Part shown: piece by piece, positions 10,808 through 60,455 of the stretch | Position numbering within the stretch: position 1 is the stretch's first letter | Layout of the letters: each line of letters opens with the position of its first letter | Translations under genes and position numbers: made by a program | Notes under the pieces: generated by a model | The model's database searches: none | Told to the model about the DNA's origin: nothing | Seen by the model: only the letters and a program-made list of their open reading frames with translations | NCBI RefSeq assembly: GCF_009931435.1 | Contig: NZ_CP043414.1 | Direction: 5' to 3' (one strand) | Length of the DNA stretch: 64,000 nt | Source of the DNA: Escherichia coli | Lineage (GTDB): Bacteria > Pseudomonadota > Gammaproteobacteria > Enterobacterales > Enterobacteriaceae

Positions 10808-11433
<626 letters not shown>

Positions 11434-48446: not shown

Positions 48447-48842
48447 TTATGAGTGGTCATTAAAGGCATCCTTAATCCACTCAACTTCATTCCCGGTGAA
48501 GGCTACCACATCGAACCGGCAATCCACAGTATCAAAACTCCCATTATGACGCGCGAGCCACAAGCGGGCAGTCTGTAATAATTTGTGTTGTTTGCTGCGG
48601 GTCACACTGGCTGCCGCACCACCGTAAAGGGCTGAGCGGCGGTAACGCACCTCGACAAAAACGGTGGTCCTGCCTTCACGCATTATCAGATCGATCTCGC
48701 CGCCACGCTCGTTCACGTTAGCGGCGACAAACCGCAGTCCTTTGCTCTCCAGCCAGCGACGCGCTTGTGCTTCCCACGCATCGCCGGTCTGTTTAGTGGT
48801 TAACTGGCGGGGACTACCTGACCTTGTTGGTACTGTAGCCAT
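48447..48842 (-). CDS. yraN: UPF0102 family protein YraN
   Basis: 131 aa [43 protein letters not shown]. Confidence 0.88.
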
Positions 48843-50836
48843 GATAACTTCCTGTTAATTACGCAATCCGGGTTAGCCGTCAGACTTCCGGTATTACCGT
48901 TGATTTCGAAACCCTGAACCTGGCGCATTTGTGAGAAATGATTTGCCAACGACCAGGCATCAACGCCCATCGCATACATGCGAGCCAGCGAATAATCGTT
49001 ATTCACCGCACTGAGCGCCTGCTGCATTAATGGCAGATTACCGCCCGCCAGCATCGGGATTTCGCTATATTGCAAACCTTCCATTTCCAGACGGAAATCC
49101 GGACCCGCGGTGCCTTGTGCGCTTCGGGAGCTTGCGTACAGCGTTGCACCGCTCTGGCTACCGTTACGCATGGCGATCATCGGTTTGATAAAAGCGATTT
49201 CACCCGGCGTTGCCACAATGTACACCGCATCGACACGACCGCCATTATTGGTGAACTGGTCATAGGTTGGCGTGGTTTGCAGCATTGGATTGTTGGTCGT
49301 TATGCCTGAATCGGTTGTCGCTCTGGGAGTAATCGGGCTACCGGTTAAAGCGATACCAGAACCACCGTTAACTCCCGCGCGTAATTCGCTGGTGGAACCA
49401 AATTTTTGTTGCAAAACGGTACCGCCGCCCAGCTTCTGCCACTCTTGCGCAAACGCATTGGCTACGCGATCGCCCAGCGAACTGCGAGGGATCAGCACCA
49501 GTGGCGCTTGTTTACCCTGGTCACGAATATGACGCGCTGCATCGCGCGCTTCGTCTTCCGGTGAAAGCGCGAAGTAACAAATATTGACGCGGTTTTCGAT
49601 ATTTTCCGGCTGGTTCAGTGCCAGCACGTTCAGCGGGGTGTTGCTTTTCAGTAACTCTTCAACGTTATTTTTCAGCAACGGACCGACCACAATACTCGCG
49701 CCATCCTGCTGAACCTGGTTGAGGATCTGGCTAAGCGGTTGTGATGAGGTATCATAAATTTTCAGCTCTGCGGATGGATTCGCGGGGGCGCTTACCGCCG
49801 CAGTGTTTGCCGCCGGGGCGCTTACAGGCACTGGTTGAGCCGCGGTTTCTTCGCCTGTCAGATCGCTAACCGAGGCTTGTGCCGGGCTGGCAACGCCGTC
49901 AACAGTTTGCTGCTGGGGTTGTTCTGCAACGTCTGCGATTGGTGCGGCAGTTGCCTGTGCCGCCACTGGCTGAGTGCCGATATTTTTCGCCGCTTCAAAG
50001 CCTTGCTGAATAGTGCGGCCAAATACTGCGGCCTGACCATTCAACGGCAATAACAGGGCTATTTTGTTGGTTGACGCTGGTTTAAATGCTTTTACGTTTA
50101 CCAACTGCGTAGGCAGCATTTTCGCGCCCGGGTTGTTCGGATAACGTTTCTGCCAGTCGGCGATCCCAGCTTTCATCATGTCGGGATCGTTACGGTTATC
50201 AAACCAGACGCGCTGCAGATCAAGCCAGCCTTGCAGAATATTTTCGTCGGCGTTGATCACCAGCGTATTCGCCTGGTCCTGAGTCATGGAGGAGAGTGCC
50301 TGCCATGTAGCATCAATATTCTGTTGCTTTTCTTTCGCGCCGAGCAGGGGTTCCTGAGCAATTAAGGCGCGCAGTAAATCAATGGAAGGACGCCCCTGAC
50401 TGGCATCGATTTTTGCCTGCCAGTAACGCGCCTGCTGGTTTTGATCTAAATCGGCAGGTGTGATTTTCGCCAGCAGGGTTTGTGCGCCAGCAAAATCTTT
50501 CTGCGCCAGCTTAATTTCTACTGCCAGAAGAGTTTTCTCGCGACGCTGGTAATCGTTCAGTTCCTGCGGCAGCTGGTTAAACAGCTCCACCGCCTGCCCG
50601 GTTTTACCTTCTTTCACCAGTGCACGAATGGCGAGTAATTGCCAGTTGATCCTGGTATCATCAGCGCTTTGCTGCATCTGCTGAAGATAAAAGGCAGAAT
50701 CAGCCTGCGCCGTGCCCTGCATATAGGCAGTGGACTGATCGGGAGTATGGGTGCCACAACCGGCGAAAATCAGGGCTGCCAGAACAACAGGCAGACAACG
50801 CGCGGCTTTCAAACGAGAAAATGTTGAGGGTACCAT
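48800..50836 (-). CDS. lpoA: PBP1A activator lipoprotein LpoA
   Basis: ORF 48800..50866 trimmed to [30 protein letters not shown] (lipobox); 678 aa; 3' end overlaps yraN start by 43 nt. Confidence 0.9.
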
Positions 50837-50900
50837 AATGTATCCAGTGATATTTTTTTTACGCAATGCTCAATATTAAATCGGCAATACGGACGACACA

Positions 50901-51764
50901 ATGAAACAACACCAATCGGCGGATAATTCTCAGGGCCAGCTTTACATTGTACCGACGCCAATCGGCAATCTGGCAGATATCACCCAGCGTGCGTTGGAGG
51001 TTTTACAGGCCGTTGATCTGATTGCCGCCGAGGATACGCGTCATACCGGTTTACTGCTGCAACATTTTGGAATTAACGCCAGGTTGTTCGCCTTGCACGA
51101 CCATAACGAACAACAGAAAGCCGAAACGTTACTGGCGAAGCTGCAGGAAGGGCAAAACATTGCGCTGGTGTCCGATGCCGGAACGCCACTAATTAACGAT
51201 CCCGGCTATCATCTGGTGCGTACCTGCCGAGAAGCGGGGATTCGCGTGGTGCCACTACCGGGGCCGTGTGCTGCTATCACTGCATTAAGTGCTGCGGGTT
51301 TACCATCCGATCGTTTTTGTTATGAAGGCTTTTTACCTGCCAAATCAAAAGGCCGCCGTGATGCGCTAAAAGCCATTGAAGCGGAGCCGCGCACGCTGAT
51401 TTTTTATGAATCGACCCACCGTCTGTTAGATAGCCTGGAAGATATCGTTGCGGTATTAGGCGAATCCCGCTACGTCGTTCTGGCGCGTGAGCTGACCAAA
51501 ACCTGGGAAACCATTCACGGCGCGCCCGTTGGCGAGCTGCTGGCGTGGGTCAAAGAAGATGAAAACCGTCGCAAAGGTGAAATGGTGCTGATTGTTGAAG
51601 GCCATAAAGCACAGGAAGAAGACTTACCTGCCGATGCCCTGCGCACGCTGGCGTTGTTACAGGCTGAGCTTCCGCTGAAGAAAGCGGCGGCGCTGGCGGC
51701 AGAGATTCACGGCGTGAAAAAAAACGCGCTGTATAAGTATGCGCTGGAACAGCAGGGGGAGTGA
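50901..51764 (+). CDS. rsmI: 16S rRNA C1402 2'-O-methyltransferase RsmI
   Basis: 287 aa [35 protein letters not shown]; divergent from lpoA. Confidence 0.93.
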
Positions 51765-51813
51765 TTACAGGCGTCGCAGCAAGAATAGAGCTGCAACGCC
51801 TACACCGGGCGAT

Positions 51814-52581
51814 TTAACGACGACACATCTCATCAATCATGCATGTGAAATAGTTATGCAGCCATAAAAACGAAGCCGGGATAGCGGTAGAGACTTTAGC
51901 CGTGAGAAAACGTTCTGTCGCATCCTGCTTTCCTTCGCCAGTCACCAGTAGCAAAACTTCGCGGGTATTGAGAATATCCTTCAGGCCTAAGGTGATCCCA
52001 CGAGTCACGGGGCGACCCGCGGTTTTTAACATCTCATGTTGCTGTGTTCTGGCATCAAGTTGACTGATATGGCAGGCCGGTTGCAGGCTTTCTCCCGGTT
52101 CGTTCAGCCCAAGATGACCGTTTTTCCCCAATCCGAGAACGCATAAATCCAGACCGCCTTTGCGCGCAATCAGGTTCGTTACCCGTTCGCACTCTGTCTC
52201 ATTTATCTCTTCGGAGCGAAAGCTGATGAGCTGGTCTTCACGTAGCCCCAGCGGCTGCACGATATGCTGTTGAAGGAAAGTTTCGCAGGTGCCAGGCATC
52301 GTTAATGGCAGATCCACCCATTCGTCGAGCTTCACGAAGGTGAGCTGGCTGACATCAACCTGCTGCTGGTGGATTTTTTCTACCAGATAATGATACGTCA
52401 GTAATGGCGTGGCTCCGGTCGCCAGGCAAATCACGGCATCCGGTTTGCTACGGATCACGGCCAATAAATATTCGCTGGCACGTTCACTTAACGCCGTATA
52501 GTTTTCAACTTGTTGAAGGGTTTGCACAGGATGAAATTCCTTTAGTAAAGAGGCACCACCAGACGCAGTGCCTCGTTCCAT
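51814..52581 (-). CDS. agaI: NagB-like galactosamine-6-phosphate deaminase/isomerase AgaI
   Basis: 255 aa ORF with NagB/Pgl-type sequence; last gene of aga cluster; exact start uncertain. Confidence 0.85.
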   Translation of the reverse strand: MERGTASGGASLLKEFHPVQTLQQVENYTALSERASEYLLAVIRSKPDAVICLATGATPLLTYHYLVEKIHQQQVDVSQLTFVKLDEWVDLPLTMPGTCETFLQQHIVQPLGLREDQLISFRSEEINETECERVTNLIARKGGLDLCVLGLGKNGHLGLNEPGESLQPACHISQLDARTQQHEMLKTAGRPVTRGITLGLKDILNTREVLLLVTGEGKQDATERFLTAKVSTAIPASFLWLHNYFTCMIDEMCRR

Positions 52582-53373
52582 TTACAAAATGCCGAATGCG
52601 GAACAAACAATAGAGAGCACAAAAGTCACGCCGATTAACAGCACCGGATGCGCTTTTTTCACCCGCAGGAAGTAATACATCAGCAGGGTATAGGCCATCG
52701 GTAAAATGTTCGGGAAGACTTTATCGAAGAAATCCTGCTGCAGGGCGACGCTGTGGGTACTGTCGATCGCAAACGATGTCACCACGTTAATATGCACATA
52801 CGAAGCGATCAGCCCGCCGATTACCGTGATCCCGAGGATGGTTGCCGAACGAGCAATCATCTGCGAGTTCTCTCGCACTTTATCGATCGCCTTCACGCCG
52901 ACTGAATAACCGACGTGGGTCCAGCCGACGCGCAGGAAGAAGATAAGCAGGTAAACGGCGAAAAATAGAATCGGCCCCAGCAAGTTTCCCTGGCTGGCAA
53001 ATGATGAGCAAATTCCCGCCATAATCGGCAATAAGGTAAACCAGAAAATCGCATCGCCAATCCCGGCGATTGGGCCAAACAGTGCCACTTTGAGGCCTTT
53101 AATGGTGTCGCGGTTTTCTCCTTTTTCTTCCATCGAAATTAATAACCCCATCAGGAATCCGACCAGATTCGGGTGGGTATTAATAAATTCGAGGTTATCT
53201 TTCATCGCCGCGCTTAGGCCCGGTTTGTCGTCCTTATAAATCTTTTTCAGGATCGGCAACATCGCCCAGGTAAAACCGCCCGCCTGCATCCTTTCGTAGT
53301 TAAAGCTTGCTTGTAGCAGTGACGAACGAAAGCCCAGACGGGTGATATCTTTTTTACTGATTTCAGATCCCAT
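52582..53373 (-). CDS. agaD: PTS galactosamine-specific EIID component AgaD
   Basis: ORF 52582..53520 trimmed to MGSEISKKDITRLGFRSSLLQASFNYERMQ with SD AGAGGA; 263 aa. Confidence 0.9.
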   Translation of the reverse strand: MGSEISKKDITRLGFRSSLLQASFNYERMQAGGFTWAMLPILKKIYKDDKPGLSAAMKDNLEFINTHPNLVGFLMGLLISMEEKGENRDTIKGLKVALFGPIAGIGDAIFWFTLLPIMAGICSSFASQGNLLGPILFFAVYLLIFFLRVGWTHVGYSVGVKAIDKVRENSQMIARSATILGITVIGGLIASYVHINVVTSFAIDSTHSVALQQDFFDKVFPNILPMAYTLLMYYFLRVKKAHPVLLIGVTFVLSIVCSAFGIL

Positions 53374-54166
53374 TGCTGTAGTCCTCTTCTTCATTTTTAC
53401 TGGCAACGGGCTGCGGTTGCGCTTGCTGCCGGGATTTCGCATTGAAAAACTCATACACCGCAAAGCCTGCGCCCAGTACGGCAACCGGCAACAGGTTGCT
53501 GACCTGGATGTAGCAAACAAACAGGAAACCGGCGATCAGGTAAGGGATATATTGCGCTTTGAACATTACGCGCAGCAGCAAGCCAAAACCAACGGCAGGC
53601 AGAATACCGCCAGCCACTTCAAAGCCGTGGGTCAGCCAGGCGGGCATCGCTTTCACCAGCGCCTGCATCGCCCCTTGCGCCAGGTAAGTACAGAGGAAAG
53701 CAATCACCGCATACGCTGAAGCGACGATGAGCATCGTTGTCCAGTTAAGTCGGGAAAACGCTGCTGTATCCGCCTCTTTCGCACAATTATCAGCTTTGGT
53801 CATGAATAATGAGAAAGCGGAATAGAAGAACAGAATGACGTACTGCATTAACAAACTAAACGGCAGACCAAGACCAATTGCCGTTTTGGCATCGACGCCC
53901 GTAGACCATGCAATGACGGTGGTCATCAGACCCGCCATAATTGGGTTGGGCGGCTGAACACCACCTGCGGGGGTTAATCCGGCGAAAGCCAGTTCTGTCA
54001 GGCCACCGGTAATTAAGCCAATCTGAATATCACCGAGAATAGCACCTGTAAGGGTACAAACGATTATCGGGCGGAATAAAAATAAGGCTTCCAGCCAAAA
54101 ATCAATCCCCAGAACGAAAACTAACGCCGCCAGGGATAATCCCTGAATTAGGGTTATTTCATGCAT
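53363..54166 (-). CDS. agaC: PTS galactosamine-specific EIIC component AgaC
   Basis: 267 aa MHEITLIQGLSLAALVFVLGIDFW. Confidence 0.92.
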   Translation of the reverse strand: MHEITLIQGLSLAALVFVLGIDFWLEALFLFRPIIVCTLTGAILGDIQIGLITGGLTELAFAGLTPAGGVQPPNPIMAGLMTTVIAWSTGVDAKTAIGLGLPFSLLMQYVILFFYSAFSLFMTKADNCAKEADTAAFSRLNWTTMLIVASAYAVIAFLCTYLAQGAMQALVKAMPAWLTHGFEVAGGILPAVGFGLLLRVMFKAQYIPYLIAGFLFVCYIQVSNLLPVAVLGAGFAVYEFFNAKSRQQAQPQPVASKNEEEDYSNGI

Positions 54167-57225: not shown

Positions 57226-58359
57226 TCAAAACGAAGCTAATTGACCCTGAATCCAGATTTGTTGCACATGCAGTCCGCTATTCAGCGCAACGACGCTGGC
57301 GCGTTTGCCCGGTTTAAGTGATCCCAGAACACCATCAACACCCAGCATACGCGCCGGATGCAGCGATGCCATATGGATGGCTTCCGCAGGCGTTACGCCC
57401 GTCAACTCGACCATGTTGCGCACTGCCGCATCGACAGACAGCGTACTGCCCGCCAGCCCACCGGACGCGGTACGGACAACGCCACCGTGCATCTGCACTT
57501 CTTCACCACATAACGTATAGCGACCATCCGGCATCCCGGCTGCCTGCATCGCGTCGGTGATGAGCACGATTCTCTCTTTCGCACAGCAACAACACAGCGA
57601 CATCGCCGCCGGATGAACATGATGCCCATCGGCTATCAGTTCCAGCCAGGCGCGCTTGTCCGTTAAACCCGCGCCAACCATTCCCGGTTCGCGGTGATGT
57701 AATCCTGTCATCCCGTTATAGCAATGCACCAGGCCGTCTGCGCCAGCATCAAATGCGGCGCGGGTTTGTTGCCAGGTTGCTGCGCTATGTCCCAGCATTA
57801 CCCGCACGTTCTGCTGTTTAAGATGACGAATGGCTTGTAACGCGCCCGTTTTTTCCGGTGCCAGCGCCACCACGCGCAAGGTATGCCGTGAAACAGCAAT
57901 CAATTGATCCAGCTCGGCAATTTCCAGCTCGCGAAACAGCTCCGGCGGATGTGCGCCTTTATTCTGCGGCGTGAAGTACGGCCCTTCGAGATAACTCCCC
58001 AGCACTTGCGCACCAGGTCCACCGCGCTGGCAGCGTAGCGCAATACGTTCCAGCGCCGCATGAATGGTATTAAGCGGCGCGGTTACGGTAGTCGGCAACC
58101 AACTGCCGACACCTTCCCGTGCCTTGTGCATTGCCAGCTTGTCGAGCGCATCCGGCGCGTCATCCATAACATCAACGCCCGCACCACCGTGTACATGGGT
58201 ATCGATATAAGCGGGGCAGAGCAGTTCCGCATCGCGTTCAGTCACGCCCACTGGAATCGGTTCGATTGCTGCGATTACACCGTCAGCAATACACAACTGA
58301 TGGTCATCGAGCCATCCCTCTTCAGTCAGCAGCCTTCTGGCGCGCAGAACGTGTGTCAT
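57226..58359 (-). CDS. agaA: N-acetylgalactosamine-6-phosphate deacetylase AgaA (full length)
   Basis: ORF 57226..58380 trimmed to MTHVLRARRLLTEEGWLDDHQL with SD GAGGAAGGAA; 377 aa; NagA-type HxH metal motif (DTHVHGG); start overlaps agaF stop (ATGA). Confidence 0.9.
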   Translation of the reverse strand: MTHVLRARRLLTEEGWLDDHQLCIADGVIAAIEPIPVGVTERDAELLCPAYIDTHVHGGAGVDVMDDAPDALDKLAMHKAREGVGSWLPTTVTAPLNTIHAALERIALRCQRGGPGAQVLGSYLEGPYFTPQNKGAHPPELFRELEIAELDQLIAVSRHTLRVVALAPEKTGALQAIRHLKQQNVRVMLGHSAATWQQTRAAFDAGADGLVHCYNGMTGLHHREPGMVGAGLTDKRAWLELIADGHHVHPAAMSLCCCCAKERIVLITDAMQAAGMPDGRYTLCGEEVQMHGGVVRTASGGLAGSTLSVDAAVRNMVELTGVTPAEAIHMASLHPARMLGVDGVLGSLKPGKRASVVALNSGLHVQQIWIQGQLASF

Positions 58360-58790
58360 ATTCCTTCCTCGACCGGACATTCTTCATGGCAGCGGCCTAA
58401 CTCGTCTACCAGACTGGTCAGCCCACGGTGTCCACACTCCAGCGCCTGCACACGGAATTCTTCACCGCTTAACCCTTCGCGCTCCAGCACCATTTCCAGT
58501 AACAGTTGCAAATTGGTGCCGGTGATCACTTCATAGCCCGGTTTTTGCATCGCCAGCGTTGAAGCCACGCGAAACGGTGTGCCGCCCAGCAAATCTGTCA
58601 GAAAAACAATGCCGTCTTCACAATCCAGTTTGGCAATGGCTTCTTCAAGCTGCGATGTAAGCAGCGCAGTGCTTGAGGTTTCCGGAAAATCAATGGCGAT
58701 AAACTGCGACTGCTCGCCGAGGATTTGCTTCATTGCTTTTTCCATGCCGCTGGCAAATCCGCCATGCCCTGTCAAAATAATACTTAACAT
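58356..58790 (-). CDS. agaF: PTS N-acetylgalactosamine-specific EIIA component AgaF
   Basis: 144 aa MLSIILTGHGGFASGMEKAMKQILGEQ. Confidence 0.9.
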   Translation of the reverse strand: MLSIILTGHGGFASGMEKAMKQILGEQSQFIAIDFPETSSTALLTSQLEEAIAKLDCEDGIVFLTDLLGGTPFRVASTLAMQKPGYEVITGTNLQLLLEMVLEREGLSGEEFRVQALECGHRGLTSLVDELGRCHEECPVEEGI

Positions 58791-58807
58791 CTAATACCTC
58801 ATTGTAT

Positions 58808-59692
58808 TTAAAGGAAATGACAGAATTTACCGACGATGCCAAGAACCACGGTAACCGCAATCAGGCGCAGCGGACTCCAGCCGCGGCGTACCAGCCAGAA
58901 CATGGTCAGGGTGTAGACCAGCGGTAAGAAGGCAGGCATCAGTTTGTCGATAACGTCAGCCTGCAGCTTAACCACTGCATCGCCCGCCGTGATTTCCAGC
59001 GTGGTGCTTAAACGAACATAGGTTGCCACCAGCGCGCCGATCACCGTCATCCCAACGATAGACGCTGCATGGCCGACTTTTTTGGTATTCGCTTTAATGA
59101 GTGGGATCGCCGCCACGCCCATGCGGTAAGCATAATGCGCCAGACCAAAACGCAGCCCCAGGTGTACCACGTTAAACAGCACAATAAACACGACTGCGCC
59201 AAGAATAGAGCCTTGCAATGCCAGACTGGCACCAATCCCGCCACAAATCGGCAGTAACGTTAGCCAGAACATGGCATCGCCAATCCCACCGAGCGGCGCA
59301 CCGACGGCAATTTTGGTGCTCTGAATACTGTTAACGTCCTGCTTAGAACGCTCCATCGCGAGGATAATGCCAATAACAAACGTCACCAGAAACGGATGGG
59401 TATTGAAGAAACCCATATGCCCCTTCATGGCGCGCGCCAGGTCGCGTTTATTAGTGTGGATCTTTTTCAGAGCAGGCAGCAGACCGTACAACCAGCCGGA
59501 AGCCTGCATACGTTCGTAGTTAAAAGACGCTTGTAACAGCATGGAACGCCAGGCGACGCGGTTGATATCTTTTTTTGTTAGCTCCGCGCCAATGCTCTGA
59601 TCTTCATACACGTTTTCATTGACGCCTGTCAGTAGTGTTTCTTCGTTTTCACTGACGTTCGGCAGGGTAGTTTGATTAGATGCCATCTTCAA
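58808..59692 (-). CDS. agaE: PTS N-acetylgalactosamine-specific EIID component AgaE
   Basis: 294 aa ORF (alternative Met 2 codons in at 59686); paralog of AgaD (shared LLQASFNYERMQA); overlaps agaW 3' end. Confidence 0.88.
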   Translation of the reverse strand: MKMASNQTTLPNVSENEETLLTGVNENVYEDQSIGAELTKKDINRVAWRSMLLQASFNYERMQASGWLYGLLPALKKIHTNKRDLARAMKGHMGFFNTHPFLVTFVIGIILAMERSKQDVNSIQSTKIAVGAPLGGIGDAMFWLTLLPICGGIGASLALQGSILGAVVFIVLFNVVHLGLRFGLAHYAYRMGVAAIPLIKANTKKVGHAASIVGMTVIGALVATYVRLSTTLEITAGDAVVKLQADVIDKLMPAFLPLVYTLTMFWLVRRGWSPLRLIAVTVVLGIVGKFCHFL

Positions 59693-60455
59693 ATTCCTCT
59701 TTCTGTGCCGCAGGTTGAGTCGGTTCAGGAGATTTACGCAGCAGGTCGATCAGCGCCATCGCCAGCGCGGCGGCAGCAATAGCCAGCACCGGTAACTTGA
59801 GCCAGGCGGCGGCAACGAAGCCCAGGATGAAGTAGGGGATATAGACGTTTTTCATCATGATTTTCAGCAGCACGGCAAAACCGATTGCTGGCATGATGCC
59901 GCCCGCGACGCCAAGGCCGTCGATTAACCGTTGCGGCAGGACATCAATGATGGTTTTTGCATGCTCCGCGCCGAAGTAGATAGGCAGGAAAGCGCAGAGA
60001 AAATAGAACGTGCCGAGTGCCAGCAATGCCAGATAGTTCACGCGTTCAATGCCGCGAGTATCGGCGTTCTCCGCCATCCGGTCGCAGCGGGACATCACGC
60101 CAGACATCACCGAGAACAGGAAGGTAATCCCCATCTGTACTGCGACAGCGAAAGGTACGGCGACACCGACCGCGACATCCGGTTTCACGCCAGTAGTAAT
60201 GGCAAACGCCGTGCCGACGATAGTTCCGATAATCACGTTAGGCGGCTGTGCGCCCGCCAGCGGTGCCAGCCCCATCCACACCAGTTCCAGCGTACCGCCG
60301 GTTAAAATACCGGTATGCAGATCGCCAAGCACCAACCCAACTAACGGGCCGAGGACCACCGGGCGGTGCATATGGGTTAGGCCGTTAAACATATCCAGGC
60401 CAGCGATAAAGGCGATAATGCCCAACGCAAATGCCTGCAACAGACTGATTTCCAT
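59676..60455 (-). CDS. agaW: PTS N-acetylgalactosamine-specific EIIC component AgaW (full length)
   Basis: 259 aa MEISLLQAFALGIIAFIAGLDMFNG; paralog of AgaC. Confidence 0.9.
   Translation of the reverse strand: MEISLLQAFALGIIAFIAGLDMFNGLTHMHRPVVLGPLVGLVLGDLHTGILTGGTLELVWMGLAPLAGAQPPNVIIGTIVGTAFAITTGVKPDVAVGVAVPFAVAVQMGITFLFSVMSGVMSRCDRMAENADTRGIERVNYLALLALGTFYFLCAFLPIYFGAEHAKTIIDVLPQRLIDGLGVAGGIMPAIGFAVLLKIMMKNVYIPYFILGFVAAAWLKLPVLAIAAAALAMALIDLLRKSPEPTQPAAQKEEFEDGI

Follow-up and report, generated by a model that had tools for sequence, protein, structure and literature searches.

The empty junction between rsmI and agaI in an Escherichia coli genome is probably the older allele of the yra fimbrial slot

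In the window, the whole stretch of 64,000 nucleotides of Escherichia coli DNA analysed here (contig NZ_CP043414.1), the genes rsmI and agaI are convergent and adjacent, and only a 49-bp gap, free of entries in the ORF list, separates their stop codons at the place where E. coli K-12 carries the yraHIJK chaperone-usher fimbrial operon. We conclude that this empty site is probably the older allele and not the outcome of a recent clean deletion, because the same junction is shared across Escherichia, rsmI and agaI are also neighbors in outgroups, the junction holds no remnants of yra, the edges of the K-12 yra segment carry no repeats, this segment is low in G+C, and a published reconstruction has the yra-bearing E. 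coli lineage gaining the operon (PMC6896753). An earlier interpretation made from the letters alone (the sequence-only reading) had offered an ancestral empty site and a clean deletion as the two explanations of the junction; the evidence favors the former. The empty form of the junction would be no younger than the split from E. albertii, and is probably as old as that from Citrobacter.

Both genes match the NCBIfam equivalog models of their families, RsmI with 629 bits to NF011570 (cutoff 502) and AgaI with 472 bits to NF007291 (cutoff 271), and agaI is followed by agaD, agaC and agaB, all on the minus strand and likewise recognized with NCBIfam (Table 1). The distance of 49 bp between the stop codons is exactly the one that the sequence-only reading had given. 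That reading had also placed yraHIJK between the two genes in K-12, and the MG1655 annotation agrees, with the order agaI (b3141), yraH, yraI, yraJ, yraK and rsmI (b3146); agaI and rsmI are therefore not adjacent in K-12, the one circumstance that it had named as able to overturn its claim. Its size of about 4.5 kb for the intervening DNA was too small: the K-12 stop codons of agaI and rsmI are 5449 bp apart, and 5007 bp separate the start of yraH from the stop of yraK. The absence of the operon from the window was borne out by tblastn searches with the four K-12 Yra proteins, none of which had a match in the 64 kb. The ORF list of the window contains no integrase or transposase gene near the junction. 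Upstream of rsmI, the lpoA ORF (48800-50866, 688 aa, with an upstream TTG start) has no NCBIfam match at E <= 0.001, and its product is 97% identical to K-12 LpoA by tblastn; the missing match is probably a gap in the NCBIfam library and not a peculiarity of the gene.

Table 1. Features at the rsmI/agaI junction, in window coordinates
Feature	Position	Strand	Remarks
rsmI, 16S rRNA C1402 2'-O-methyltransferase	50901..51764	+	287 aa; ORF list; NF011570 full length
agaI, galactosamine-6-phosphate isomerase	51814..52581	-	255 aa, intact; ORF list; NF007291 model positions 1-236/236
Spacer between the convergent stop codons	51765..51813	.	49 bp; "empty" allele of the yra slot
Stem-loop	51769..51801	.	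arms 51770-51780 and 51790-51800; 9-nt loop; extra A-T pair 51769/51801
Haplotype-specific segment	51759..51856	.	98 bp; blastn breakpoints against K-12, the same for LF82 against K-12

The difference between the window and K-12 extends beyond the spacer. Blastn homology between them ends after 51758 and resumes at 51857, and the 98 bp in between stand opposite 5483 bp in K-12 (L001 8996..14478), which contain yraK-yraJ-yraI-yraH, their promoter region and alternative tails of the flanking genes. The variable segment takes in the final codon of rsmI and the final 14 of agaI, and since it reaches into both gene ends, the two alleles are not related by a simple insertion into the spacer. At the protein level, RsmI ends in ...EQQGE in the window and in ...EQQG in K-12, and the final 14 agaI codons (51814-51856) end in ...NYFTCMIDEMCRR in the window and in ...SNFICLINT in K-12 (slightly longer, ...HNYFTCMIDEMCRR against ...HSNFICLINT). 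Homology between the two AgaI tails is still recognizable (NYFTCMID against SNFICLIN), but about 50% of their bases differ, beside coding sequence that differs at about 2%, which gives this stretch the look of an imported segment. LF82, a yra-negative strain, has the identical two breakpoints against K-12, and the identity of its flanks stays at an ordinary 97.5-97.8% as far as the breakpoints themselves. Apart from the length of the variable segment and the AgaI tail, the K-12 locus (b3141-b3146, with its cryptic chaperone-usher fimbrial operon) resembles that of the window in its flanking genes and their orientation, with flanks that are 94-99% identical.

The content and the edges of the K-12 segment were examined for traces of how the two states arose. 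The genes yraH, yraI, yraJ and yraK are the only ones inside the insert, which has no recombinase gene, and the G+C content of the yra segment is 45.3%, compared with 50.6-53.8% in the flanks. The sequence-only reading had proposed short direct repeats at the insertion edges as a sign of which state is derived; neither direct nor inverted repeats were found to span the K-12 yra edges (L001 8996 and 14478). A blastn-short search of the 98 bp against the K-12 segment recovered chance matches only, of 7-14 nt and E >= 0.096. Truncated tails of the K-12 type are likewise absent from the junction, where both tails are full-length alternative versions.

The junction and its flanks were aligned to the K-12 boundaries and to E. 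coli genomes, as had been suggested from the sequence, and besides the contrast of 98 bp with 5483 bp this revealed that the empty form is widespread. The 49-bp gap, the hairpin inside it and the tails AgaI ...DEMCRR and RsmI ...QQGE also occur in E. albertii NBRC 107761, in E69 (an E. coli about 93% identical to the window) and in LF82. The 49-bp spacer is present as well in PA45B, in R32_14_1F (98.5% identical to the window) and in five further E. coli chosen across the range of identity to the window. Two junction alignments (A1 and A2) had mean column identities of 94-95% and equal spacer length. Between the window and E. albertii, identity is about 91% in the bin that holds the junction and 90.7% in the flanks; a junction that diverges at the rate of its flanks is the pattern expected of vertical descent. 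The yra-negative alleles of LF82, EC958, PA45B and E. albertii thus share with the window lpoA, rsmI, a convergent agaI and agaD, as well as spacer length, hairpin and gene tails; they differ in that most of them match the window spacer at 88-92% identity and that the window has CTACAC in place of CTGTAC.

Direct convergence of rsmI and agaI is not restricted to Escherichia: Citrobacter youngae, C. werkmanii and Citrobacter sp. FP75 show it, with gaps of 141 bp, as do an Enterobacter, Trabulsiella and two Phytobacter species. The Citrobacter spacer contains a hairpin, GCGTTGCAGC...CTGCAACGC, with the same stem core as in Escherichia, GCGTTGCAG/CTGCAACGC. This cross-species comparison drew on 80 loci, none of them from E. 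fergusonii, and the Salmonella locus (L031) entered it through the tblastn map. As a separate observation, GTCGGAAGAAAT occurs three times in tandem upstream of the hairpin in the 141-bp Citrobacter spacer (L010, L012 and L018, ~10880-10925), a repeat that has no Escherichia counterpart.

We then counted the states of the slot in 5426 complete E. coli genomes. A 1049-bp probe found the rsmI-agaI junction contiguous in 1835 of them, and the 98-bp segment was present in 1869 (in 1821 at a coverage of at least 80%). The K-12 yra segment occurred in 3523 genomes, and overall about 34% of slots are empty and about 65% hold yra. Strains with an empty slot include LF82, EC958 and PA45B. The inference that the strain is not K-12 was correct, but the junction is a weak marker, given that about 34% of complete E. 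coli share the empty site, and the overall identity of the window to K-12 shows as much without recourse to the yra slot. The version in the window is itself rare: its spacer is at least 99% identical to that of only 15 genomes. The presence/absence polymorphism of yra in E. coli is common and has already been described. Relative to phylogroup D as the reference, the E/B1/A lineage was inferred to have gained yra (PMC6896753), and yra genes are among those expressed only in A/B1 urinary isolates (PMC4128348); in the chaperone-usher survey of Wurpel et al. 2013 (PMC3559732), yra appears in figures and tables only and not in the main text. Yra fimbriae are a known lineage marker, present in E/B1/A, to which K-12 belongs, and absent in D/F/G/B2, and the slot has little importance beyond strain typing.

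The spacer had been described as one near-perfect hairpin with 10 of 11 pairs, and both the arms and the pair count stand. The arms GGCGTCGCAGC and GCTGCAACGCC form 10 Watson-Crick pairs out of 11, and the single odd pair is C-A in plus-strand RNA and G-U in minus-strand RNA. The predicted fold has an energy of -26.2 kcal/mol on the minus strand (z = -4.45, equaled by 0 of 200 shuffles) and of -18.7 kcal/mol on the plus strand (z = -2.41, equaled by 3 of 200 shuffles); because these energies beat those of shuffled sequences, the hairpin is more than a chance palindrome. It lies 5 nt past the rsmI stop and 13 nt past the agaI stop, and its stem, GC-rich and 11-13 bp long, is of the kind found in the stem-loop of an intrinsic terminator. 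There is no U-tract next to the hairpin on either strand (3' flanks UACACCGG on the plus and UGUAAUCAC on the minus strand), a promoter and terminator scan returned no sites and no terminator-like site at the hairpin, and Rfam gave nothing at E <= 1 across 50800-52700 of the window. We infer that the hairpin is a candidate 3'-end stem-loop shared by the convergent rsmI and agaI transcripts, which might serve as the terminator of both or as a block to exonucleases. Like bidirectional intrinsic terminators, it is a lone GC-rich stem-loop located 5-13 nt from both stop codons and stable on both strands; unlike them, it has neither the defining U-tract nor the A-tract, and the role proposed for it is a predicted one.

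The hairpin varies among strains. In most others the stem reaches 15-16 bp (TTACAGGCG.../...CGCCTGTAA), and the two changes that turn CTGTAC into CTACAC on the 3' side of the stem shorten this extended stem in the window. The hairpin is conserved across Escherichia. Among 11 Escherichia sequences (7 of them distinct), compensatory change is limited to a single pair, which goes from G-C to A-U in E69, and the covariation score of this set is no better than that of shuffles, 78 of 500 of which attain it; conservation is therefore seen, and statistical proof of a selected structure is not. The core GCGTTGC...GCAACGC is also found 3' of rsmI in Citrobacter, K-12 and E. whittamii, the last two having the core GCGTTGCG...CGCAACG in their rsmI-yraK spacers. 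In K-12 the hairpin (core GCGTTGC/GCAACG) comes just after rsmI; a T-rich run, CTTCTTTT, comes next, ahead of the yraK stop. The hairpin is thus an old rsmI-proximal element that was kept in both the empty and the yra alleles, with yra lying between the hairpin and agaI.

The slot accommodates contents other than yra (L091 580-3000, L085 9747-14768 and L092 1501-2351). For example, strain wlxctx60 has a 2.4-kb cassette with an MBL-fold hydrolase and a LysR regulator between rsmI and agaI, which was recovered at a coverage of at least 80% in 64 genomes. In O145:H28 strains the annotation places this cassette next to a PTS IIB gene fragment. Strain 2020CK-00188, which with 99.8% identity comes closest to the window over the first 24 kb, has the cassette too, and there malX- and malY-like genes take the place of agaBCDI. 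In about a dozen genomes the slot is instead filled by a RelE/ParE toxin and an HTH antitoxin, in a cassette that shares edges of ~165 bp and ~220 bp with the MBL-LysR cassette. In this slot, Escherichia sp. MOD1-EC7003 (L016 1680-7071) carries a yra-like chaperone-usher operon whose proteins are 53-65% identical to K-12 Yra; the Klebsiella and Citrobacter operons are closer to K-12 than this one, which suggests an allelic replacement of the whole operon.

The rsmI/agaI slot is, in our assessment, a small integration hotspot without a mobile-element signature. In the work of Touchon and colleagues (2009) and Oliveira and colleagues (2017), E. coli hotspots are reportedly pairs of conserved core genes that enclose alternative accessory cassettes. 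Like such hotspots, the slot is framed by a single pair of core genes, takes at least five alternative contents and has boundaries that fall sharply at the gene ends; unlike them, it has no tRNA, integrase or mobile-element signature. Cassette exchange here appears to be driven purely by homology of the flanks. It is highly doubtful that the hairpin itself marks or promotes recombination and that the slot is a dedicated site of cassette exchange, an arrangement that, if true, would account for the precise ending of five or more different cassettes at both stop codons. The hairpin core is retained in the empty and yra alleles and in Citrobacter, and not in the MBL-LysR or toxin-antitoxin states.

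Could an ancestor with a K-12-like yraHIJK have lost the operon in a single precise event that left a 49-bp scar? The yra-family operons that adjoin rsmI in Klebsiella, Citrobacter sp. MGH106, Superficieibacter and E. whittamii make an old presence conceivable, and the homologous rsmI-side hairpin of the two haplotypes is compatible with either polarity. Such a deletion would, however, have to predate the genus, because the 49-bp junction and its gene tails are common to E. albertii, E69, B2 strains and the window lineage and have diverged at the rate of the flanks. The adjacency of rsmI and agaI and the hairpin core extend to Citrobacter; the window keeps no yra remnants, the K-12 edges offer no repeats that could mediate a precise loss, and the gene tails, differing at about 50% of bases, are not truncated K-12 tails. 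Taken together, these observations make a clean deletion quite improbable. We give somewhat more thought to, and still consider unlikely, an old polymorphism, balanced or repeatedly exchanged, in which both alleles predate the diversification of Escherichia and were swapped by recombination in the flanks, neither being derived within E. coli. Such a history would fit the sharing of both alleles across species (the empty one by E. albertii, E69, the window lineage and B2, the yra one by K-12 and E. whittamii, whose breakpoints are identical), the three other cassettes in the slot, and window flanks that differ in history (dS against K-12 and LF82 of 0.27-0.30 on the left and 0.05-0.13 on the right). 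Within E. coli, however, the distribution of yra has been reported to follow deep lineages and is not scattered (PMC6896753), and the flanks of K-12 and LF82 are ordinarily divergent up to the breakpoints, leaving no long divergent block of the kind produced by balancing selection.

The remaining explanation concerns the hairpin, which would be a copy of a dispersed repeat of the REP or BIME kind, or else a scar left by a mobile element or the attachment site of one. As a GC-rich palindrome flanked by convergent genes, it does sit in a typical REP location, and the Trabulsiella spacer has REP-like GCCGGATAAG palindromes at the same position. The 98-bp segment is nevertheless present in exactly one copy (lowest, median and highest) in all of the 1869 genomes that have it, which led us to reject a REP or dispersed-repeat identity, and the hairpin has no Rfam match, no flanking repeats and no integrase or transposase nearby. 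We therefore regard a repeat or mobile-element origin as extremely unlikely.

If the empty site is the older allele, as we favor, the most likely route of entry for yra is homologous recombination with a relative that already had the operon at this position. One crossover would have fallen in the last rsmI codons and the other within agaI, about 44 nt from its 3' end, and the incoming DNA would have replaced the hairpin and both gene tails with the versions of the donor; it is this replacement of the tails that points to homologous recombination rather than to a mobile element. On the simplest reading, an early insertion brought the operon into some enterobacterial lineage, and it later moved between relatives through homology in rsmI and agaI. 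A yra operon that is colinear with the one of K-12 (83-90% amino-acid identity) and has the same breakpoints is present in E. whittamii, and the gain of yra is for this reason not limited to E/B1/A. Further yra-like operons lie directly downstream of rsmI, with no aga genes, in Klebsiella spallanzanii, K. oxytoca, Citrobacter sp. MGH106 and Superficieibacter. Their ushers are 63-69% identical to that of K-12, which is close to the 67-81% of LpoA and argues that a yra-family operon at rsmI is also old. Between K-12 and E. whittamii, dS is 0.67-0.88 for the yra genes and 0.32-0.55 for the flanking genes, a pattern that fits neither simple vertical descent nor recent transfer between these lineages.

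The first 24 kb of the window are about 97.5% identical to nearly every E. coli, B2 included, and reach at least 99% in only 18 of the 5426 genomes; over its whole length, the window is about 97% identical to K-12. These identities point to a deep lineage of which few genomes have been sequenced, possibly cryptic clade I. The lpoA-rsmI side is 92-95% identical to K-12 and the aga side 96-99%. Measured as dS against K-12 and LF82, lpoA and rsmI (48800-51764) reach 0.27-0.30, compared with 0.05-0.13 for agaI and agaD (51857-53400). This contrast may reflect an old boundary of recombination at the junction or just a faster evolution of lpoA and rsmI in this stretch. A sharply bounded introgressed block ending at the junction was considered and rejected, since identity to K-12 fluctuates between 93 and 99.7% over the whole window. 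Farther into the aga cluster, positions 57785-60079 have no match in K-12, in agreement with the annotated K-12 pseudogenes agaW and agaA; the window has here an intact N-acetylgalactosamine branch, with an agaE-like IID gene at 58832-59593.
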